From the NCBI GenBank assembly GCA_965232895.1, contig OZ247430.1:3456122-3520121 (forward strand): a DNA stretch of 64,000 nt, in the 5' to 3' direction. The position numbers and the translations under genes are program-made. Positions 989 to 62,979 of the stretch are shown here, piece after piece; position 1 is the stretch's first letter; each line of letters starts with the position of its first letter. Under the pieces are notes generated by a model. The model did no database searches, had not been told where the DNA came from, and saw only the letters and a program-made list of their open reading frames with translations. This DNA is from Dehalococcoidia bacterium (lineage in GTDB: Bacteria > Chloroflexota > Dehalococcoidia > Lucifugimonadales > UBA3495).

Positions 989-1753
989 ATGTATATACTC
1001 TATCTGGATGAGTCTGGTGCCCATGGCGAAGCCAGCCACTTCGTGCTCGCCGGCCTTGCTGTGTTCGAACGGGAAATCCATTGGTTCAGTCAGGATCTGG
1101 ATGCCCTACAGCGGGAGTTTTTACCTAACGAAACTGGACCCGTTTTCTTCCACGCTTCGCAACTACGAACAAGGGTCAACGACAACGTCGAGGCACCTTG
1201 GGACAAACTGACGGTGGAACAGCGCCGGGAATTGAAGGACCGGGTGTACGATGTTATACGGACGAGAAGGGCGGTCCTTTTTGCCTGTGCGGTGGACAAA
1301 TCGTACGCCGGCCTCCGTAACGAAGATCCGTATGAACGAGCATTTGAGGATCTGATAAGCAGGTTTGATTTGTTCATGAGTCGGGCAAACCGACAAGCGA
1401 TTGCCGAAGGTTCTGGGGAGCAACGTGGTTTGGTCGTGCTGGCCGAGTCGAGTTATCAAAAAACGCTAGCTCTTTTGGCACAGAGGCTTCGGCAGGAAGG
1501 CACCAGATGGCGCAACCTGCATAACGTGACTGATATTCCATACTTCGCTCCGGCACGAGATACCCGATTGCTCCAATATGCGGATTTTTGTGCAAATGCC
1601 ATTTACGGACGATACCACTCCAAACTCACTGGTGATTTCGACCGAATCGCTCACAAATTCGACATGGAGTCAGGAGTGGTCCACGGATTGGCACATCTCA
1701 CCAGGGACTCATCATGTGTCTGTTTGGCTTGCTTCAGCAGGCACGATCGCTGA
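989..1753 (+). CDS. DUF3800-family protein
   Basis: The N-terminus MYILYLDESG matches the DUF3800 signature as I recall it. The gene is visibly more AT-rich than its flanks. Confidence 0.6.
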   Translation: MYILYLDESGAHGEASHFVLAGLAVFEREIHWFSQDLDALQREFLPNETGPVFFHASQLRTRVNDNVEAPWDKLTVEQRRELKDRVYDVIRTRRAVLFACAVDKSYAGLRNEDPYERAFEDLISRFDLFMSRANRQAIAEGSGEQRGLVVLAESSYQKTLALLAQRLRQEGTRWRNLHNVTDIPYFAPARDTRLLQYADFCANAIYGRYHSKLTGDFDRIAHKFDMESGVVHGLAHLTRDSSCVCLACFSRHDR

Positions 1754-1771
1754 ATTAGCGTAGGTGTACCC

Positions 1772-2185
1772 ATGGTGATTTCGCTGCTCCAAACGTTCAA
1801 CCCGGCTGACTACGCCGGCAACTGGCTGGCGGTAGTAATCGCCATCGCCATCGCGCTGGCGGCTATCGGGGCGATGTTCGCTGGTTCGCAACTGCTTTCG
1901 GCCCGGCGCCGCTCCGCCGTCAAGCTCACGACCTACGAATGCGGGATACCGCCGACGCCGTTCGCGTGGTCGAATATCAACATCCGCTTCTACATCTTTG
2001 CGATCCTGTTCCTGATATTCGATGTTGAAGCGGTCTTCCTGTTCCCGTGGGCCGTGGTATTTCTGCAGGAAAAAGCGGTGAACGGCAACGCCATACCGTT
2101 CTACGCCATGCTGCTGTTCCTGGCCATGCTGTTTTTCGCCGTTATCTACGGGTGGCGCAAGGGGGTTCTGGATTGGCAGAAATAA
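1772..2185 (+). CDS. nuoA: NADH-quinone oxidoreductase subunit A
   Basis: YECGIPP...[24 protein letters not shown]; three TM segments; first gene of the nuo cluster. Confidence 0.93.
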
Positions 2186-2232
2186 ATCCCGTTACTGGAT
2201 CTTCTGAGGAACCAACGACGTCCCCGCTGGCC

Positions 2233-2787
2233 ATGCCGCCCCGGGCCACGGAGATCGTGCTGGGCGCTGGAAATCGGCCCGGCCCAAGCCTGCTCAACCA
2301 GGCAACCGATGGGCGGGTGCCCGGCGTTATCACGGCGACCACTGACCAGCTGTTTGCCATGGCGCGCAAATCGTCGCTGTGGACCCTCAGCTTCGGGCTC
2401 GCTTGCTGCGCCATCGAGATGATCTCCACGTACATGGCCCATCACGATTTTGACCGTTTCGGCGTCGTGACCTGGCCATCGCCCCGACAGTCGGACGTCA
2501 TGATCGTTGCCGGCACCGTGGTCAAAAAGATGGCCGAGCCCATCCGGCTGCTCTACGAGCAGATGCCGGAGCCGAAGTGGGTCATCGCCATGGGCAGCTG
2601 CGCCACGAACGGCGGCCCCTACTATCGTTCCTACTCCGTGGTGATGGGCGTCGACCACATCATCCCGGTGGACGTGTACGTGCCCGGATGCCCGCCACGC
2701 CCTGAAGCGTTGCTGTACGGCATCCTGAAGCTCCAGGAAAAAATCATGGCCGACGCGGGGGATGGCAGTGCCGCACCCTCGGCGTAA
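2233..2787 (+). CDS. nuoB: NADH-quinone oxidoreductase subunit B
   Basis: GLACCAIEM...[11 protein letters not shown]...[12 protein letters not shown] (N2 cluster cysteines). ATG 2233 was chosen because the ORF-track start 2047 overlaps nuoA. Confidence 0.93.
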
Positions 2788-3298
2788 CGCTCCGGAGGCG
2801 GACGCGGAGCCGCCGCCGGATCCCGTTGACCTGCTGGCGCCGGCGCGGCGGGAAACTCTGGATCGCGCCATCGGGGTGCTCGCGCAGTACTCACCGGCTC
2901 CAGGCGCGCTGGGAGACCTGCCACAGGTGTCCGTGCCTGCGGCCGACATCGTTTCCGCGTGCGTGGCCTGCCGGGACGACGACTCGCTGGACTGCCGCAT
3001 GTTGCTCTGCCTGGCGTGCGTGGATTACGAGGATCGTTTTGAGTTGGTCTACATCCTGCAGTCGTTGGCCCGGGAGCAGTCGCTGGTGATACGCACGACG
3101 GTATCCTACGAAAATCCTGCCCTGCCATCGGTGTGCGGAGTATGGCCGGCGGCGGACTGGTACGAGCGCGAGGCGCATGACCTGTTTGGCGTAGCATTTG
3201 ACGGTCACCCCGACCTGTCTCCCCTGCTGCTGTATCCGGAATTTGACGGTTACCCGGGCCGGAAATCGTACGAATTCAATGAGTACCGTGAATTCTGA
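2762..3298 (+). CDS. nuoC: NADH-quinone oxidoreductase subunit C
   Basis: [25 protein letters not shown]...[14 protein letters not shown] is typical of NuoC. Confidence 0.9.
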
Positions 3299-3609
3299 TG
3301 ACCGCTGCTCAGCAAATGGATATCAATGTCCCGGACGATGCGGCTCCGGTGGAGTTGATTGCGCGGGTCGTGCCCAGCGCCGGACAGTTCCTGGCCACGG
3401 TGGATGGGCTGGAACTTCAGAGCAGTGGACGCACTCGGGAGGCTGCGGAGAATGGGTTGGTCCAGGCAATGCGAGGCTGGCTGGAACGGCAGGATACCGG
3501 TGGCCGCCTGGGACAATCGCTGGGACTTGAGAACCTGACCGAGGAAACCGAAATCGTGCTGCGGTTTGTGGACGACGAACCACCCGTTGCGGACGACACC
3601 GGCGGCTAG
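3298..3609 (+). CDS. Small HicB-like (UPF0150-fold) protein
   Basis: FLATVDGLELQSSGRTREAAENGLVQAMRGWLE follows the HicB-like pattern. The start overlaps the nuoC stop (TGATG). Confidence 0.4.
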   Translation: MTAAQQMDINVPDDAAPVELIARVVPSAGQFLATVDGLELQSSGRTREAAENGLVQAMRGWLERQDTGGRLGQSLGLENLTEETEIVLRFVDDEPPVADDTGG

Positions 3610-3612
3610 GCT

Positions 3613-3915
3613 ATGGATCGGATCGTGTACGAAATCGAGGCGAGGCCCATGGGCGCTGGCTGGTCCGCGCGCTGCCCGGAACTGGAAGTGATGGCGTTCG
3701 GCGACACTCAGGAAGACGCCCGCACTTCACTGCGGAAACAGGTTTCGGACTACCTGGAAGACTGCGAAGAAATGGGCATTTTGGAGGAGGTGCTGATCGA
3801 GGCCGGCTTCTACGACAACGGCGAAGCGTGGATGAGCGCCCGCGTGGAACCGCCGCAGCCCAGCCTGCGTTTCATCGGCTCTCCCTTTCCCGAAACCCGC
3901 GAGCCGTCAGCGTGA
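3613..3915 (+). CDS. Small HicB-like (UPF0150-fold) protein
   Basis: WSARCPELEVMAFGDTQEDARTSLRKQVSDYLEDCEEMG resembles HicB-family antitoxin N-domains. Confidence 0.5.
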   Translation: MDRIVYEIEARPMGAGWSARCPELEVMAFGDTQEDARTSLRKQVSDYLEDCEEMGILEEVLIEAGFYDNGEAWMSARVEPPQPSLRFIGSPFPETREPSA

Positions 3916-3947
3916 TCAGCGCGTTGTCGGATTCGATCGCGTAAACC

Positions 3948-5099
3948 ATGGCCGATCCTACTGCCATCACTACCCAGATGCCTGACGGCGTCCGCGAAGG
4001 GACGCAGCCGGTGGAGATGCTGCTCAACATGGGGCCGCAGCATCCGTCGACCCACGGCGTGTTCCGCATGGTGCTCTGGGTGGATGGCGAGAAGGTGGTC
4101 GACGTTGAGCCTCACATCGGTTACCTGCACCGGGGATCCGAGAAGCTCTGCGAGGGCGAGCAGTACCACCAGGTAGTCACACTGTTCGACCGGATGGACT
4201 ACATCGGCAACTTCAACAACGAGTTGGCTTACTGCATGGCCGTCGAGAAGCTGATGGGCCTGGAGGTGCCGGAGCGGGCGGAATACATCCGCGTGATCCT
4301 GTGCGAGCTGAATCGCATCGCCAGCCACCTGCTTTACGTCGGAACCATGGGCCTGGACGCCGGCGCCATGACGCCGGTGATGTTCTCCTTCCGCGGCCGT
4401 GAGCGGGTTCAGGCGTTGTTCGAAGCCGTTTCGGGCGCCCGCTTGATGCACAACTATTTTCGCATCGGCGGCCTCAAGGAGGACGTTCCCGACAATTTCC
4501 GACAGTTGGTGGGAGAGTTGATGCCGCTGCTGCGGGAAGACGTCGAGCAGAGTGACCGCATTCTGACCTTCAACGAAATCTTCCTGTCCCGCCTCAAAGA
4601 CGTCAGCCCGATAGGGGCCGACGAAGCCATCGCCCTGGGCCTCACCGGGCCGATGCTTCGTGCCTGCGGCTATGAGTACGATGTCCGCAAGGCGCAGCCG
4701 TACTCGATATACGACCGTTTCGACTTTGAGGTGCCGGTGGGTCTGGACGGAGATTGCTGGGACCGGCATTGGGTACGGGTCCAGGAGATGTACCAGTCCC
4801 TGCAGATCGTCGAGCAGGCGATGGAACAATTGCCCGAGGGCTCGGTAACTTCGTCTCTGGGCCGGCGCCTGATTCGCCCGGCCGCCGGTGAGGCCTACGT
4901 TCGCGCCGAGAACCCCCGGGGCGAGATCGGTGTGTACCTGGTCAGCGACGGCACCGACCGGCCCTACCGGGTGAAGGTGCGGCCGCCGTCCTTCTGCAAT
5001 CTGTCCGCACTGCGCCGGCTGCTCGTTGACACCTGGCTGGCGGACAGCGTGGTGGTGCTGGGATCGCTGGACATCGTGCTGGGCGAGGTGGACCGGTGA
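3948..5099 (+). CDS. nuoD: NADH-quinone oxidoreductase subunit D
   Basis: LNMGPQHPSTHGVFRMVLWVDGEKVVDVEPHIGYLHRGSEKL. Confidence 0.96.
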   Translation: MADPTAITTQMPDGVREGTQPVEMLLNMGPQHPSTHGVFRMVLWVDGEKVVDVEPHIGYLHRGSEKLCEGEQYHQVVTLFDRMDYIGNFNNELAYCMAVEKLMGLEVPERAEYIRVILCELNRIASHLLYVGTMGLDAGAMTPVMFSFRGRERVQALFEAVSGARLMHNYFRIGGLKEDVPDNFRQLVGELMPLLREDVEQSDRILTFNEIFLSRLKDVSPIGADEAIALGLTGPMLRACGYEYDVRKAQPYSIYDRFDFEVPVGLDGDCWDRHWVRVQEMYQSLQIVEQAMEQLPEGSVTSSLGRRLIRPAAGEAYVRAENPRGEIGVYLVSDGTDRPYRVKVRPPSFCNLSALRRLLVDTWLADSVVVLGSLDIVLGEVDR

Positions 5100-6208
5100 A
5101 TTTCCTGGTCGATCTGGCATGGAGCGCCCTCGGGCTCGCGGTCATGTTCGCCGTGCTGTCGGTGATCGTGTTGTCCATGACCTGGCTGGAGCGCAAGGCT
5201 CTGGGCCGCCTCCAACTGCGCTACGGGCCTACCCGCACGGGATTGTTCGGACTGATGCAGCCCATCGCCGACGCGGTAAAGCTGATCATCAAGGAAGACA
5301 TCATCCCCGACGACTCGGAAAAAGCCATCTTCTGGATCGCACCGGTGATCGTCGTCGTATCCGCCTTCGTCATCTGGGTGACCATACCCGGCGGCGACAA
5401 CGTGGTGATCCGTAACCTGCCTCTGGGACTGTTCTACATCATCGCCTTTGCCGTGATCGGCATCCTCGGGCTGGTGCTGGCCGGCTGGGGATCGGCGAAC
5501 AAGTACGGCATCATGGGTGGGCTGCGGTCGGCCGCGCAGTTGATCTCCTACGAGATCCCGGTGGTCCTGGTGACCGCGGCCGTTGCCATTCTGGCGCAAT
5601 CGCTCGACATGCGTGAAATCGTCGCGCAGCAGTCTTCCTATCCCTACCTGTTGGTTCTGCCGCTGGGCTTTGTGGTGTTCTTCGTCGCCGGCCTGGCGGA
5701 GGTTGGCCGCACCCCCTTCGACATCTACCACGCGGAGAGCGAGGTGGTTGGTGGCCCATTCGTGGAGTACAGCGGCGCCCACTGGTCGGTGTTCTTCCTG
5801 GCCGAGTACATCAACACCTTCGCCATCGCCGCCCTGACGACGCTGCTGTTCCTTGGCGGTTGGGGCGGCCCTGCCCTTCCTGACGTAGTGTGGTTCCTGT
5901 TCAAGACCTACGCCGTGGTGCTGGTGGTGTTCTGGGTGAGGGGAACCTTCCCGCGCCTCCGCATCGACCAACTGATGGCCTTCGCCTGGAAGGTGATGGT
6001 CCCACTGTCCTTCTACACGGTAATCATTGCCGCCGTGTACCGGTTCTACGGCCTGCCCTGGTGGAGCCTGACCATGATGTCCGTCGCCGGGCTGGCGGTT
6101 GCGGGGTGGATCATCTACCGTCGTATGACCGGCCCGGCCCGCCGGGTTGCGGAAGTGCAGCGGCAGCTGGCCGAACGGCGGCGCTCCGCCGCCGGGGCAC
6201 GCACCTGA
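5096..6208 (+). CDS. nuoH: NADH-quinone oxidoreductase subunit H
   Basis: LERKALGRLQLRYGPTRTG...GLAEVGRTPFDIYHAESEVVGG; GTGA overlap with nuoD. Confidence 0.95.
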   Translation: MNFLVDLAWSALGLAVMFAVLSVIVLSMTWLERKALGRLQLRYGPTRTGLFGLMQPIADAVKLIIKEDIIPDDSEKAIFWIAPVIVVVSAFVIWVTIPGGDNVVIRNLPLGLFYIIAFAVIGILGLVLAGWGSANKYGIMGGLRSAAQLISYEIPVVLVTAAVAILAQSLDMREIVAQQSSYPYLLVLPLGFVVFFVAGLAEVGRTPFDIYHAESEVVGGPFVEYSGAHWSVFFLAEYINTFAIAALTTLLFLGGWGGPALPDVVWFLFKTYAVVLVVFWVRGTFPRLRIDQLMAFAWKVMVPLSFYTVIIAAVYRFYGLPWWSLTMMSVAGLAVAGWIIYRRMTGPARRVAEVQRQLAERRRSAAGART

Positions 6209-14530: not shown

Positions 14531-15298
14531 TTACGCCGCCAATTCATCGCGCACTGCTTCGCGTTGCGTCCACGGAACCGGGAGCACATCGTAATTCCTT
14601 AGAGCTTCCTGCACGTTGCCAGATACGGATTGGTCGCTATCGTTGAGAAACGCATAGGTGCGAGAATCCGAAGGACGTATATCACGAGTATCGATATAGG
14701 AGAACACAATCGCTTGGGCGATGTCCCGGCTTGGACGGTTTACTGTCCGTAACAGGCGCTCCGGATGAGTACGTGATTTGGGGATAATAAAGTTGAACCG
14801 GTGGTCGTACCCGCTTTGCCCTTTGAGGGTCACGTCAGGGGTGTAACGTATGTCGCAGTCATCTAGCCATGCCGTGACGTCCTCCAGGAATAGGCTCGCC
14901 ACTGTCGACTGTGCCAAGTAAAAGAGATCGTTGACGGCCAGCATGGCTTGGAGGAGATTGTGCTTGCGGACCGCGAAATTGGCTGATCCCGCTTGGACTT
15001 CTAAACGGCGATTTTCAACAAGTTCTACGCCGAAACCCCTTAGTGTGATAGCAAGAATCTCTTGTCGCCGAGGCGTGTCGATGGGGCAGCCGGACATCTC
15101 TAGGTCGTCCAAAGTAAACCCATCATCAGTCAACAAAAACCCATCGCCTGATTTTGTCGCATATATCTGGATATAATCATTGTGCCGGTCCAGATGCGGC
15201 GTCGTAATCTCGTACCAACTGTCGATTTGGCGTAGGGTGGTCTTGTCCTTCAACCAATCCCAATATCGGTCTAGCAAGACTTGGATGTCGTCGTTCAT
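14531..15298 (-). CDS. DUF1828/DUF1829-like two-domain protein
   Basis: WYEITTPHLDRHNDYIQIY matches my recollection of the DUF1828 N-domain, and the C-terminal half looks DUF1829-like. The gene is more AT-rich than nuoN. Confidence 0.55.
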   Translation of the reverse strand: MNDDIQVLLDRYWDWLKDKTTLRQIDSWYEITTPHLDRHNDYIQIYATKSGDGFLLTDDGFTLDDLEMSGCPIDTPRRQEILAITLRGFGVELVENRRLEVQAGSANFAVRKHNLLQAMLAVNDLFYLAQSTVASLFLEDVTAWLDDCDIRYTPDVTLKGQSGYDHRFNFIIPKSRTHPERLLRTVNRPSRDIAQAIVFSYIDTRDIRPSDSRTYAFLNDSDQSVSGNVQEALRNYDVLPVPWTQREAVRDELAA

Positions 15299-24893: not shown

Positions 24894-25056
24894 CAGGGCA
24901 ATCGCAAATGGGCGTTTTTAGTGCCGTCATTCCGGCGAAAGCCGGAATCCAGCGAGCGAAATGGTCAACCATGTTTCACATTCTTTCACCATAGGATCTG
25001 TGGACTCCGGCGAAAGCCGGAGTAACGGAACCATAGTTTCATATGCGATTGCCCTG
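24894..25056. mobile_element. 163-bp MITE, copy 1 (17-bp TIR CAGGGCAATCGCAWATG, two internal hairpins)
   Basis: Its reverse complement aligns end to end with 39678..39840 at roughly 86% identity by hand alignment, with equal length. Confidence 0.75.
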
Positions 25057-26228: not shown

Positions 26229-27681
26229 GTAGGGGCGAATGATTATTCGCCCCATAGGCATCAAGTTAAGGGAAGCTGCCGGTAAGATGGTGATTGCATT
26301 CCAATCAATCGCCACCGGAGCTTCCCATGAGCAGTGTGCCAGAAGTTGCCCAGGCCATGAGCCGGGTTCTCACCGGAGTGGCCCAGCAGGCCGCCGCCGA
26401 GACGGGGCTGGTGCAACGGCGTTCCAAACTCACCGGTCCCGGCTTGGTGCAGACCCTGGTTTTCGGTTGGCTGGCCGACCCGGACGCCAGCCTCAGTTCG
26501 CTGACCCAGATGGCGGCCACGCTGGGGGTGACCATCAGTCCCCAGGGCCTGTTCCAGCGGTTCACGCCCCAAGGGGCGGAATGTCTGTACCGAGTTTTGC
26601 AAGAGGCTTTGGGTCAAGTTATTGACGCCGAACCGGTGGCGATTCCGCTACTGCGGCGCTTCACCGCCGTGTTGATCCAGGACAGCTCGGTCATCATGCT
26701 GCCCGACGGACTGAGCGAGGTCTGGGCCGGTTGCGGCGGCAGCGGTTCCTATGGACAGTCAGCCCTGAAACTACAGGTCCGGCTGGATTTGACCACTGTT
26801 TCTGATGCTGGGGCCTTTTCTGACTGATGGGCGAACCCCGGACAGCAATTCTGCGGTGCAGACGGCGCCGGTCCCAGCTGGCGCGCTGCGCATTGCCGAC
26901 TTGGGGTATTACCGACTGGATACCTTCCGGGAATTGGCGGCGCAAGGGGGCTATTTCCTGTCTCGGTACAAAGCCGGAACCAAACTCTACCGGCATGATG
27001 GCGCGGAACTGGACCTGCGGAAGCTGCTGTCCACTCCGTCGGCAACCGGCATTGACCGGCCGGTATTGCTGGGGCGCGCCCACCGCTTGCCTGTCCGCCT
27101 GCTGGCCGTCAAAGCGCCCCCAGAAGTGAGCGCCCAGCGGCGGCGGCAACTCAAAGACCACGCCCGCAAGAAAGGTCAGCAGCCCAGCAAAACCCGGTTG
27201 GCCTTATGCGACTGGACCATCTACGTTACCAACGCGCTCCCATCCCAGATCAGCCGAGATGAGGCAATGGTATTGGCGCGGGCGCGCTGGCAGATTGAAC
27301 TGCTTTTCAAACTGTGGAAGCAACACGGAGGCATTGACCGCTGGCGCTCCGCCAATCCCTGGCGGATCCTCTGTGAGGTCTATGCCAAACTGACCGCCAT
27401 GGTCATCCTGCACTGGACTTTGCTGACTGCGGTCTGGATGTACCCGGACCGAAGCCTGGTCAAGGCCGCCGCCGCCGTCCGTCGCTACGCCGTAATGCTG
27501 GCTACTGCCATGACCGGACTACTTACGGCAACCATGGTCATCGAGCAGATTGGCTTATGCCTGCGCGCCGGGTGTAAAATCCAGCGGCGTCGTCAACGCC
27601 CCGGGTCATATCAACTACTACTCGCCCTAACCGACGACGCTTAACTTGATGCCTATGGGGCGAATGATTATTCGCCCCTAC
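26229..27681 (+). mobile_element. IS4-family insertion sequence, copy A (frameshifted)
   Basis: 17-bp perfect IR ataggcatcaagttaag, bracketed by ggggcgaatgattattcgcccc on both sides. Nearly identical to copies B and C. Confidence 0.9.
26327..27644 (+). pseudogene. IS4-family DDE transposase, disrupted by a +1 frameshift
   Basis: tttc at 26799..26802 replaces gac (52600..52602 in copy B). This splits the ORF into 26294..26827 and 26805..27644. Confidence 0.85.
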
Positions 27682-39677: not shown

Positions 39678-39840
39678 CAGGGCAATAGCATATGAAATTA
39701 TGGCTTCGTCACTCCGGCGAAAGCCGGAGGCCACAGGTCCTATGGTGAAAGAATGTGCGGCATGGTTGACGATTTCGGTCACTGGATTCCGGCTTGCGCC
39801 GGAATGACGACACTAAAATCGCTCATACGCGATTGCCCTG
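39678..39840. mobile_element. 163-bp MITE, copy 2, flanked by a 10-bp direct repeat AACGATTACC
   Basis: TIRs cagggcaatagcatatg / catacgcgattgccctg. aacgattacc occurs at 39668..39677 and again at 39841..39850. Confidence 0.8.
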
Positions 39841-52029: not shown

Positions 52030-53468
52030 GTAGGGGCGAATGATCATTCGCCCCATAGGCATCAAGTTAAGGGAAGCTGCCGGTAAGATGGTGATTGCAT
52101 TCCAATCAATCGCCACCGGAGCTTCCCATGAGCAGTGTGCCAGAAGTTGCCCAGGCCATGAGCCGGGTTCTCACCGGAGTGGCCCAGCAGGCCGCCGCCG
52201 AGACGGGGCTGGTGCAACGGCGTTCCAAACTCACCGGTCCCGGCTTGGTGCAGACCCTGGTTTTCGGTTGGCTGGCCGACCCGGACGCCAGCCTCAGTTC
52301 GCTGACCCAGATGGCGGCCACGCTGGGGGTGACCATCAGTCCCCAGGGCCTGTTCCAGCGGTTCACGCCCCAAGGGGCGGAATGTCTGTACCGAGTTTTG
52401 CAAGAGGCTTTGGGTCAAGTTATTGACGCCGAACCGGTGGCGATTCCGCTACTGCGGCGCTTCACCGCCGTGTTGATCCAGGACAGCTCGGTCATCATGC
52501 TGCCCGACGGACTGAGCGAGGTCTGGGCCGGTTGCGGCGGCAGCGGTTCCTATGGACAGTCAGCCCTGAAACTACAGGTCCGGCTGGATTTGACCACTGG
52601 ACTGATGCTGGGGCCTTTTCTGACTGATGGGCGAACCCCGGACAGCAATTCTGCGGTGCAGACGGCGCCGGTCCCAGCTGGCGCGCTGCGCATTGCCGAC
52701 TTGGGGTATTACCGACTGGATACCTTCCGGGAATTGGCGGCGCAAGGGGGCTATTTCCTGTCTCGGTACAAAGCCGGAACCAAACTCTACCGGCATGATG
52801 GCGCGGAACTGGACCTGCGGAAGCTGCTGTCCACTCCGTCGGCAACCGGCATTGACCGGCCGGTATTGCTGGGGCGCGCCCACCGCTTGCCTGTCCGCCT
52901 GCTGGCCGTCAAAGCGCCCCCAGAAGTGAGCGCCCAGCGGCGGCGGCAACTCAAAGACCACGCCCGCAAGAAAGGTCAGCAGCCCAGCAAAACCCGGTTG
53001 GCCTTATGCGACTGGACCATCTACGTTACCAACGCGCTCCCATCCCAGATCAGCCGAGATGAGGCAATGGTATTGGCGCGGGCGCGCTGGCAGATTGAAC
53101 TGCTTTTCAAACTGTGGAAGCAACACGGAGGCATTGACCGCTGGCGCTCCGCCAATCCCTGGCGGATCCTCTGTGAGGTCTATGCCAAACTGACCGCCAT
53201 GGTCATCCTGCACTGGACTTTGCTGACTGCGGTCTGGATGTACCCGGACCGAAGCCTGGTCAAGGCCGCCGCCGCCGTCCGTCGCTACGCCGTAATGCTG
53301 GCTACTGCCATGACCGGACTACTTACGGCAACCATGGTCATCGAGCAGATTGGCTTATGCCTGCGCGCCGGGTGTAAAATCCAGCGGCGTCGTCAACGCC
53401 CCGGGTCATATCAACTACTACTCGCCCTAACCGACGACGCTTAACTTGATGCCTATGGGGGCGAATGA
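52030..53468 (+). mobile_element. IS4-family insertion sequence, copy B (intact)
   Basis: Same IRs as copy A. The right boundary is set at the centre of the palindrome shared with copy C. Confidence 0.9.
52128..53444 (+). CDS. IS4-family DDE transposase
   Basis: VLIQDSS..., RIADLGYY..., ARARWQIELLFKLWKQ (R-x3-E-x6-K). ATG 52128 follows GGAG. The ORF track starts at TTG 52095. Confidence 0.9.
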   Translation: MSSVPEVAQAMSRVLTGVAQQAAAETGLVQRRSKLTGPGLVQTLVFGWLADPDASLSSLTQMAATLGVTISPQGLFQRFTPQGAECLYRVLQEALGQVIDAEPVAIPLLRRFTAVLIQDSSVIMLPDGLSEVWAGCGGSGSYGQSALKLQVRLDLTTGLMLGPFLTDGRTPDSNSAVQTAPVPAGALRIADLGYYRLDTFRELAAQGGYFLSRYKAGTKLYRHDGAELDLRKLLSTPSATGIDRPVLLGRAHRLPVRLLAVKAPPEVSAQRRRQLKDHARKKGQQPSKTRLALCDWTIYVTNALPSQISRDEAMVLARARWQIELLFKLWKQHGGIDRWRSANPWRILCEVYAKLTAMVILHWTLLTAVWMYPDRSLVKAAAAVRRYAVMLATAMTGLLTATMVIEQIGLCLRAGCKIQRRRQRPGSYQLLLALTDDA

Positions 53469-54907
53469 TCATTCGCCCCCATAGGCATCAAGTTAAGGGA
53501 AGCTGCCGGTAAGATGGTGATTGCATTCCAATCAATCGCCACCGGAGCTTCCCATGAGCAGTGTGCCAGAAGTTGCCCAGGCCATGAGCCGGGTTCTCAC
53601 CGGAGTGGCCCAGCAGGCCGCCGCCGAGACGGGGCTGGTGCAACGGCGTTCCAAACTCACCGGTCCCGGCTTGGTGCAGACCCTGGTTTTCGGTTGGCTG
53701 GCCGACCCGGACGCCAGCCTCAGTTCGCTGACCCAGATGGCGGCCACGCTGGGGGTGACCATCAGTCCCCAGGGCCTGTTCCAGCGGTTCACGCCCCAAG
53801 GGGCGGAATGTCTGTACCGAGTTTTGCAAGAGGCTTTGGGTCAAGTTATTGACGCCGAACCGGTGGCGATTCCGCTACTGCGGCGCTTCACCGCCGTGTT
53901 GATCCAGGACAGCTCGGTCATCATGCTGCCCGACGGACTGAGCGAGGTCTGGGCCGGTTGCGGCGGCAGCGGTTCCTATGGACAGTCAGCCCTGAAACTA
54001 CAGGTCCGGCTGGATTTGACCACTGGACTGATGCTGGGGCCTTTTCTGACTGATGGGCGAACCCCGGACAGCAATTCTGCGGTGCAGACGGCGCCGGTCC
54101 CAGCTGGCGCGCTGCGCATTGCCGACTTGGGGTATTACCGACTGGATACCTTCCGGGAATTGGCGGCGCAAGGGGGCTATTTCCTGTCTCGGTACAAAGC
54201 CGGAACCAAACTCTACCGGCATGATGGCGCGGAACTGGACCTGCGGAAGCTGCTGTCCACTCCGTCGGCAACCGGCATTGACCGGCCGGTATTGCTGGGG
54301 CGCGCCCACCGCTTGCCTGTCCGCCTGCTGGCCGTCAAAGCGCCCCCAGAAGTGAGCGCCCAGCGGCGGCGGCAACTCAAAGACCACGCCCGCAAGAAAG
54401 GTCAGCAGCCCAGCAAAACCCGGTTGGCCTTATGCGACTGGACCATCTACGTTACCAACGCGCTCCCATCCCAGATCAGCCGAGATGAGGCAATGGTATT
54501 GGCGCGGGCGCGCTGGCAGATTGAACTGCTTTTCAAACTGTGGAAGCAACACGGAGGCATTGACCGCTGGCGCTCCGCCAATCCCTGGCGGATCCTCTGT
54601 GAGGTCTATGCCAAACTGACCGCCATGGTCATCCTGCACTGGACTTTGCTGACTGCGGTCTGGATGTACCCGGACCGAAGCCTGGTCAAGGCCGCCGCCG
54701 CCGTCCGTCGCTACGCCGTAATGCTGGCTACTGCCATGACCGGACTACTTACGGCAACCATGGTCATCGAGCAGATTGGCTTATGCCTGCGCGCCGGGTG
54801 TAAAATCCAGCGGCGTCGTCAACGCCCCGGGTCATATCAACTACTACTCGCCCTAACCGACGACGCTTAACTTGATGCCTATGGGGCGAATGATCATTCG
54901 CCCCTAC
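53469..54907 (+). mobile_element. IS4-family insertion sequence, copy C (intact, head-to-tail with B)
   Basis: The predicted protein is identical to that of copy B. Ends ...cttaacttgatgcctatggggcgaatgatcattcgcccctac. Confidence 0.9.
53554..54870 (+). CDS. IS4-family DDE transposase
   Basis: Identical translation to 52128..53444. Confidence 0.9.
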   Translation: MSSVPEVAQAMSRVLTGVAQQAAAETGLVQRRSKLTGPGLVQTLVFGWLADPDASLSSLTQMAATLGVTISPQGLFQRFTPQGAECLYRVLQEALGQVIDAEPVAIPLLRRFTAVLIQDSSVIMLPDGLSEVWAGCGGSGSYGQSALKLQVRLDLTTGLMLGPFLTDGRTPDSNSAVQTAPVPAGALRIADLGYYRLDTFRELAAQGGYFLSRYKAGTKLYRHDGAELDLRKLLSTPSATGIDRPVLLGRAHRLPVRLLAVKAPPEVSAQRRRQLKDHARKKGQQPSKTRLALCDWTIYVTNALPSQISRDEAMVLARARWQIELLFKLWKQHGGIDRWRSANPWRILCEVYAKLTAMVILHWTLLTAVWMYPDRSLVKAAAAVRRYAVMLATAMTGLLTATMVIEQIGLCLRAGCKIQRRRQRPGSYQLLLALTDDA

Positions 54908-62951: not shown

Positions 62952-62979
62952 GCAGGGGCGAATGATCATTCGCCCCTAC
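62952..62979. repeat. Solo copy of the IS-flanking palindrome (ggggcgaatgatcattcgcccctac)
   Basis: The 22-bp core at 62955..62976 is identical to the cores bracketing IS copies B and C. No IS is adjacent. Confidence 0.85.

Follow-up and report, generated by a model that had tools for sequence, protein, structure and literature searches.

Published target-site duplications of insertion sequences (ISs) of the IS4 family are 8–13 bp long, about one helix turn (PMC2266710). Within this family, the end signature of the IS231 subgroup is CAT-------AA--TAA (PMC2266710 Table 1), and IS231A makes an 11-bp duplication at the GGG-N5-CCC target GGGNNNNNCCC (PMC2577343 Table 1). ISRm22, another IS4-family member, is reported to target repetitive extragenic palindromic (REP) sequences (PMC1525189). 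Head-to-tail junctions with spacers of a few bp are known from IS30, IS21, IS911 and IS2, which move by copy-out/paste-in and for which the junction is a reactive intermediate (PMC3299598). Here we analyse a head-to-tail pair of IS231-like elements, copies B and C, in the genome of a Dehalococcoidia bacterium (4.12 Mb + 164 kb, 62.7% G+C). The window, the whole stretch of 64,000 nucleotides analysed, corresponds to C1:3456122-3520121, and positions without the prefix C1 refer to it. The element belongs to a Chloroflexota clade of IS231-like elements with a fixed two-turn duplication of the target, here a whole hairpin. No report of a two-turn duplication in IS231-type elements was found in the searchable literature (ISfinder being outside this scope). 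The tandem itself is an ordinary consequence of this insertion mode and probably arose when one IS inserted on two separate occasions at what had been a single REP-like hairpin.

Copies B (52054-53457) and C (53480-54883) both lie on the forward strand, are 1404 bp long and are 100% identical in the sequence comparison. They begin with CATAGGCATCAAGTTAAG and end with CTTAACTTGATGCCTATG, and carry 18-bp terminal inverted repeats of IS231 type. As the original prediction stated, they encode identical 449-aa open reading frames (ORFs; 52095-53444 and 53521-54870). That of B starts at TTG 52095, upstream of an ATG; the likely ATG starts, with GGAG just upstream, are 52128 in B and 53554 in C and give 438 aa. 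The transposase of B (52128-53444, forward strand) contains D119, D191 and E324, with its stop codon inside the right inverted repeat, and the transposase of C (53554-54870, forward strand) is the same. Between the ATAGG...CCTAT cores of the two copies there are 24 nt, GGGGGCGAATGATCATTCGCCCCC. The inverted repeats had been described as parted by this palindrome only, which holds for the cores, but the true IS termini extend one base beyond the core on each side (C...G), leaving a spacer of 22 bp.

This 22-bp spacer is the junction hairpin GGGGCGAATGATCATTCGCCCC (53458-53479), which contains the right copy of B's and the left copy of C's target duplication. Together with the inverted repeats at B's right end and C's left end, it forms the 58-bp perfect palindrome that had been noticed at the centre 53468/53469; its exact reverse-complement identity extends over 53440-53497, and its predicted DNA hairpin energy is -32.5 kcal/mol versus -12.9 kcal/mol for a solo hairpin. 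The outer-left hairpin copy (52030-52053) consists of GTA and the left copy of B's 21-bp duplication GGGGCGAATGATCATTCGCCC, and the first base of the IS completes its stem. The outer-right hairpin copy (54884-54907) consists of the right copy of C's 21-bp duplication GGGCGAATGATCATTCGCCCC followed by TAC. Runs of 5 G and 5 C stand at the junction and runs of 4 each at the outer boundaries, a difference that was already pointed out and is present in the sequence. The junction sequence occurs once in the whole 4.28-Mb genome, and the tandem is real in the assembly. A hybrid or junction-specific promoter was looked for at the B/C junction, and none was found.

A hairpin stands on both sides of all 20 IS copies in the genome. 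Sixteen of them lie in one REP-like family and four in other GC-rich hairpins (C1:210473, 1378846, 2197934 and 2881328). The four non-REP hairpins have asymmetric loops (such as TGAAAA, AACATTCAT and AGAAC), and each of these ISs has the whole 20-23-bp segment as a direct repeat on either side. Copy A in the window (26233-27677, forward strand; IS 26253-27657, 1405 bp, with a frameshifted transposase) is flanked by the 20-bp repeats GGGCGAATGATTATTCGCCC (26233-26252 and 27658-27677), which have the asymmetric loop GATT and are direct, not inverted. Since asymmetric loops are repeated directly, the flanks are target-site duplications rather than IS ends. At C1:1378846, the target has GGG...CCC only, and so do the orthologues in two related genomes; therefore, one C and one G next to ATAGG and CCTAT belong to the IS, and the element is 1404 bp long. 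These C/G termini are also IS-borne in the relatives L023, L030, L031 and L115. An extra base on one side was observed for single copies at C1:393681 and 2817814 (right) and at 210473 (left).

Other delimitations of the element were tried and rejected. Palindromes as parts of the IS (42-bp inverted repeats) conflict with the directly repeated asymmetric loops and with flanks that vary from site to site. An IS with half-hairpins that enters the loop without duplication fails at the four non-REP hairpins and at non-palindromic targets. A TA duplication with both palindromes inside the IS does not fit, as some copies are flanked by GCA..TGC or ATA..TAC.

Empty sites were searched in 54 same-genus genomes with the two flanks of the tandem joined by one hairpin. 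A contiguous match was found in many of these genomes, with up to 91% identity. In genome L041, the orthologous intergenic spacer ...GGCACAATCATGTAGGGGCGAATGATCATTCGCCCCTACCCATCACAGGAGG... contains exactly one hairpin and no IS. When the other 18 reconstructed sites were used as a concatenated query, a contiguous orthologous site with a single hairpin was found for at least nine of them.

Relatives of the transposase are encoded in a complete Dehalococcoidia metagenome-assembled genome (MAG; 79% identity, at least 12 copies), Chloroflexia MAGs (43-55%), Herpetosiphon aurantiacus pHAU01 (44%) and Chlorohelix (41%). Duplication of the whole segment was also observed for relatives at 36-79% identity, including those of the Herpetosiphon and Chlorohelix isolates. 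The IS ends of the relatives read C-AT(A/G)NGCATCAA, and their flanks are 19-21-bp direct repeats with GGG at the start and CCC at the end. Duplication lengths were scored at 42 sites of at least eight IS species: 20 bp at 32 sites, 21 bp at eight and 19 bp at two, and GGG was present at 83-84 of the 84 half-sites. Some targets are non-palindromic, namely GGGGATCGACACGAGGGCACC (L030), GGGGTGGCGGGGAGGCCCCCC (L050), ATGGGGTGTCTGCGCAATCCC (Herpetosiphon) and GGGTGCTAAAACCAGTGCCC (Chlorohelix). The duplications on these targets indicate that the stagger of about 20 bp is intrinsic and that a hairpin is not needed. In the relatives L028, L025 and L037, the two hairpins beside some copies are unrelated to each other or mutually inverted, which is expected after recombination between IS copies at different sites.

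Thousands of homologues form a widespread Chloroflexota clade of IS231-like elements whose duplication spans two helical turns instead of one. The clade offers a natural experiment on the way in which a DDE transpososome fixes the spacing of its two strand-transfer sites. Because the flanking hairpins look like 42-bp terminal repeats, they would mislead the annotation of IS boundaries. REP-like hairpins as IS landing pads are, for this phylum, without description in the searchable literature.

The following course of events is proposed for the tandem. The original hairpin would have sat between an amidohydrolase-like gene and a downstream gene. The IS belongs to the IS4 family, has IS231-type ends and probably moves by cut-and-paste, its chemistry being taken from family membership. 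Its transposase would attach the IS ends to the two target strands at either edge of GGG-N14-CCC, with about 20 bp between the joining points, where the family norm is about 10 bp; the transpososome would then span two helical turns, presumably on a bent target or an extruded cruciform. Gap repair would copy the whole segment, here the entire hairpin, to both sides of the IS, and the IS-terminal C and G would make each flank GGGG...CCCC again, so that one target becomes two. A second copy would then have entered one of the two hairpins left by the first, giving hairpin-IS-hairpin-IS-hairpin. Both events would have used a 21-bp stagger with a one-base offset in opposite directions, and these opposite offsets account for the longer G and C runs at the junction (5 each) than at the outer edges (4 each). 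Either order of the two events is possible.

Insertions into the reconstructed empty site were simulated and scored on an exact match to the 3151-bp region. Only two successive insertions with 21-bp duplications reproduced the region exactly, with two solutions: B inserts first with GGGGCGAATGATCATTCGCCC and C then enters B's right-hand hairpin with GGGCGAATGATCATTCGCCCC, or the order is reversed. Simulation of a single insertion followed by unequal crossover or unit duplication gave no solution for this region. With random choice of hairpins, about 1.4 of 20 insertions are expected in an IS-flanking hairpin, so one tandem is not surprising. As one origin of the structure, the original prediction had offered that the palindrome beside the first copy was hit by a further insertion, and this is favoured by the duplication of the hairpin at each insertion, by the simulation and by non-identical neighbours in metagenomes. 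Because whole-target duplication renews the target twice, head-to-tail IS pairs are predicted and explained without dimer intermediates.

Several points weigh against two separate insertions. The 21-bp stagger is a minority type (8 of 42 sites), and it has to be assumed for both events with mirror-image offsets, a modest coincidence. The 5-versus-4 G/C argument hangs on homopolymer lengths, which are known from the assembly, and the tandem as such is known from the assembly and from indirect arguments. B and C are identical, but so are many copies, and their identity neither supports nor excludes duplication. Finally, Campbell-type homologous integration of a circle of IS plus 22 bp into a resident copy gives the same sequence.

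The last point leads to a rival explanation, in which the IS inserted once and the IS+hairpin unit was then duplicated through unequal sister-chromatid exchange, slippage, or excision of a circle and its homologous re-integration. The flanking direct repeats of 20-22 bp could recombine, and IS copies do recombine in this genome, where the position-86 variant and the frameshift are found in each of their four combinations. Moreover, the metagenome contigs L119 and L124 consist of 1.1-1.7 IS+spacer units without flank, as a circle or an array assembles, and integration of a circle with a 22-bp spacer would yield the 4|5,5|4 pattern. However, such a circle needs a parent with a 22-bp duplication, which none of the 20 copies has, and no single insertion can yield, by unequal crossover, runs of 5 G/5 C inside with runs of 4 outside. 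Independent examples (L119, L120 and L121) also pair non-identical copies or even different IS species, an outcome that duplication is unable to generate. We therefore regard duplication of the unit as unlikely. An assembly artefact, in which a repeat was expanded at a locus that really holds one IS copy, is very unlikely. In favour of an artefact, the genome holds the unit 20 times as an exact repeat of 1.4 kb, and differences in G/C-run length are a typical error mode of long reads; but the chromosome is a single contig of 4.12 Mb in which 20 identical IS copies were resolved, implying spanning reads, the junction sequence is unique in the genome and so must derive from reads, and the same architecture was assembled independently in other samples.

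It is extremely unlikely that the palindromes are parts of the IS, as 42-bp terminal repeats, and that the dimer is an intermediate like the (IS)2 junctions of IS30, IS21 and IS911. Flanks with symmetric loops do look like a 42-bp inverted repeat, and the spacer at the junction has about the length of the duplication, which is also the case in copy-out/paste-in circles. Against this, flanks with asymmetric loops are direct rather than inverted (copy A, C1:210473, 2197934 and 2881328), the flanking hairpin varies by site and pre-exists at empty orthologous sites, the transposase is of the cut-and-paste IS4 family, and no promoter specific to the junction was found. The tandem-dimer or circle-junction intermediate, which the original prediction had given as the other possible origin, is thus not needed and is ill-suited to such an element.

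Two separate insertions are also suggested by tandems in metagenomes. A scan for a right end, N16-26 and a left end returned eight contigs, six of which encode transposase relatives at 41-54% identity. Contig L121 reads IS-GGGCACGGCATGCCGTGCCC-IS-GGGCACGGCATGCCGTGCCC-flank, and its two right ends differ at several positions. In L120, the order is flank, GTA-GGGGCGCGTGTCCGCGCCC, IS, the same hairpin and a different related IS. The junction hairpin recurs at the outer boundary in both contigs. L119 holds two copies with two differences in 30 bases, and in L124 a 24-bp palindrome lies between two copies of the same orientation. Where the neighbours are non-identical, circles, unequal crossover and assembly loops are excluded, and repeated insertion fits. 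All classifiable metagenome pairs are head-to-tail. Long palindromes are known to be unstable, and an inverted pair, as a palindrome of 2.8 kb, would therefore be expected to be lost. A 44-bp element composed of the IS ends TTGATGCCTATG and CATAGGCATCAA around a 20-bp AT-rich spacer was also observed in two metagenome contigs (L117, 6405-6448; L118, 4541-4584). No transposase is encoded at these loci, one of which was cut from a 135-kb contig, and the element may be a minimal end-pair remnant.

The palindrome at the landing site is not part of the IS but belongs to a REP-like hairpin family. The 22-mer was found at 79 places in the genome with up to three changes, and a looser pattern at 95 places, about 62 of them without an IS nearby. 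One of these solo hairpins, GCAGGGGCGAATGATCATTCGCCCCTAC, lies unoccupied in the window (62952-62979; C1:3519076 in the genome search) and is a potential target. The consensus of the solo hairpins is GYA-GGGGCGAAT-NNNN-ATTCGCCCC-TRC, in which the outer bases covary (GTA..TAC or GCA..TGC). Like REPs, they are abundant short extragenic GC-rich palindromes with compensatory variation in the stem (about 62 solo copies). No Y1/RAYT transposase was matched in the genome by a PF01797 profile search, and the same profile matched 6 of 14 control genomes. The REP-like hairpin that holds the IS copy at C1:1821120-1822521 is missing from the orthologous spacer of three related genomes, indicating that the hairpin family has gained sites in this lineage despite the lack of a RAYT. 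In the hairpins at C1:1378846 (L089 versus L093) and C1:2881328 (L103 versus the present genome), the asymmetric loops are reverse-complemented between species while the stems are fixed (ATCCC versus GGGAT; AGAAC versus GTTCT), a case of loop flipping in a conserved hairpin. The genome contains 1880 GGG-N14-CCC sites, and all 19 used sites are hairpins, which may reflect a preference either for structure or for the GGGCG...CGCCC arms of the hairpins.

The two hairpins beside one IS are not always the same. The left and right loops differ in 6 of the 16 REP-type copies, and differences between the two hairpins were found at C1 14792, 393681, 670400, 1406728, 1458105, 1655626 and 3329208; this pattern is absent at copies A, B and C of the window. 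At 14792, the orthologous loop is GACC, the left one GATT and the right one GACC. At 1655626, the three loops are GATC, GATT and AATC, and at 3329208 they are GATC, AATT and AATC, in the same order. The left copy at 393681 also has a C-to-T change in the stem. In the orientation of the IS, the 14 differences comprise only C-to-T changes on the left and only G-to-A changes on the right; both amount to C-to-T on the strand that enters the IS in the 5' to 3' direction, and orthologous empty sites confirm the ancestral states at four loci. The strand that the strand-transfer gap leaves single-stranded is the opposite one. The strand entering the IS would be exposed once the donor has been cleaved and resected, or once a first strand has been nicked, and strand-specific single-strand damage fits the changes. 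Gene conversion from other IS copies, with tracts running out through the hairpin, fits as well, and the IS copies do recombine (the four combinations mentioned above). Three hairpin differences in relatives (L021, L031 and L056) have the opposite polarity. Rearrangement breakpoints were rejected as a cause at 14792, 1406728 and 1655626, where the flanks are contiguous in relatives, and polishing towards the majority sequence was rejected since the changes do not move to the majority state.

A further-reaching proposal, which we consider rather doubtful, is that the transposase is structure-guided: it would capture an extruded cruciform or a sharply folded two-turn segment and join the IS ends at the base of the stem, and the C-to-T changes in the flanks would then record repeated nicking by the transposase or end resection that exposes the strand running into the IS. 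If this were true, the enzyme would measure the hairpin rather than the groove, and REP-like hairpins would be self-renewing landing pads.

The original prediction suggested a survey of other copies and deduced recent activity of the IS. The survey returned the 20 copies described above, all at 99.6% identity or more and 17 of them intact, and no DNA-level match to the IS was found in the 18 same-genus genomes of the relatives search, which indicates a recent expansion in this lineage and bears out the deduced activity. Copies A, B and C had been counted as three near-identical copies; the near-identity stands, but the transposase of copy A is frameshifted and stops at codon 167. Two other copies share this frameshift (ACTGGACTG to ACTGTTTCTG), at C1:2881328 and 2920909. 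The three copies lie in three different hairpins, each with its own duplication, which indicates that the defective variant was moved in trans. A G/A variant at position 86 is found in all four combinations with the frameshift, which indicates recombination between IS copies. Elsewhere in the window, 24894-25056 and 39678-39840 form a 163-nt inverted pair with 86% complementarity, which resembles miniature inverted-repeat transposable elements and is unrelated to the IS.

The transposase is placed in the IS4 family by the Pfam model DDE_Tnp_1 (PF01609; 80.5 bits) and the NCBIfam model transpos_IS4_1 (NF033592; 200.7 bits versus a cut-off of 115). The spacings of D119, D191 and E324 (72 and 133) are within the D(60-110)D(100-150)E of the family, and these residues are invariant in the alignment with the Herpetosiphon, Chlorohelix and Bacillus relatives. 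In the Y(2)R(3)E(6)K signature, R320, E324 and K331 are present; at the Y position, this element and the 79% relative have Ala, the Herpetosiphon relative has Leu, and the Chlorohelix, L023 and Bacillus relatives have Tyr. Since Tyr is kept in some relatives with 20-bp duplications, the Ala does not explain the stagger. As in other IS4-family elements, there are a single transposase ORF without programmed frameshift (438/449 aa) and terminal inverted repeats (18 bp). In contrast, the duplication is not the 8-13 bp of about one turn, but 19-21 bp at 42 of 42 scorable sites.

Longer duplications are known from IS1634 and IS1549 of the IS1634 family, which are IS4-related DDE elements with duplications of more than one helical turn (PMC2266710). 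Their repeats vary by copy from 8 to 514 bp, whereas those described here are fixed at 20-21 bp with GGG/CCC edges, and the NCBIfam IS1634 model gives this transposase 27.8 bits versus a cut-off of 100. The (IS)2 dimers and circle junctions of IS30, IS21, IS911 and IS2 likewise have head-to-tail copies with a short spacer between the right and left ends. Unlike these, the spacer of the present tandem is a pre-existing 22-bp target hairpin that copies neither flank, and the transposase is of a cut-and-paste family, so the junction does not have the features of an active (IS)2 junction. Nearly all copies of the REP-targeting IS1397 and ISKpn1 (IS3), IS621, ISPpu9/10 and ISPa11 (IS110) and ISRm22 (IS4) lie in extragenic palindromic repeats, as they do here. 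Those elements split the REP into two fragments (PMC1525189), whereas the present IS leaves an intact copy of the entire hairpin on each side, and this clade also uses non-palindromic GGG-N14-CCC sites.

The IS231 subgroup is the closest described system. CATAGGCATCAAGTTAAG agrees with CAT-------AA--TAA at every specified position (PMC2266710 Table 1), the right end, which was the only end compared, matches the Bacillus thuringiensis element end CATTGCTATCAAGCTAAG at 14 of 18 positions, and there is one DDE transposase in both. The nearest plasmid-borne homologues outside Chloroflexota are IS4 elements of the B. cereus group (698 of 855 records, about 29% identity over 85%). The present element differs from the subgroup in its length (1404 bp, under the subgroup range of 1450-5400), in its Ala at the YREK tyrosine, in its host (Chloroflexota rather than the B. 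cereus group) and in its transposase, which is about 29% identical to those of B. cereus-group elements, while many pairs within the subgroup exceed 50%. The target of IS231A has GGG and CCC at the edges of a symmetric target and duplication (PMC2577343 Table 1), and so does the target here, with N14 instead of N5 and a duplication of 20-21 bp instead of 10-12 bp. The GGG/CCC edges are thus kept in this clade with 9 bp more spacing than in IS231A, about one extra helical turn.

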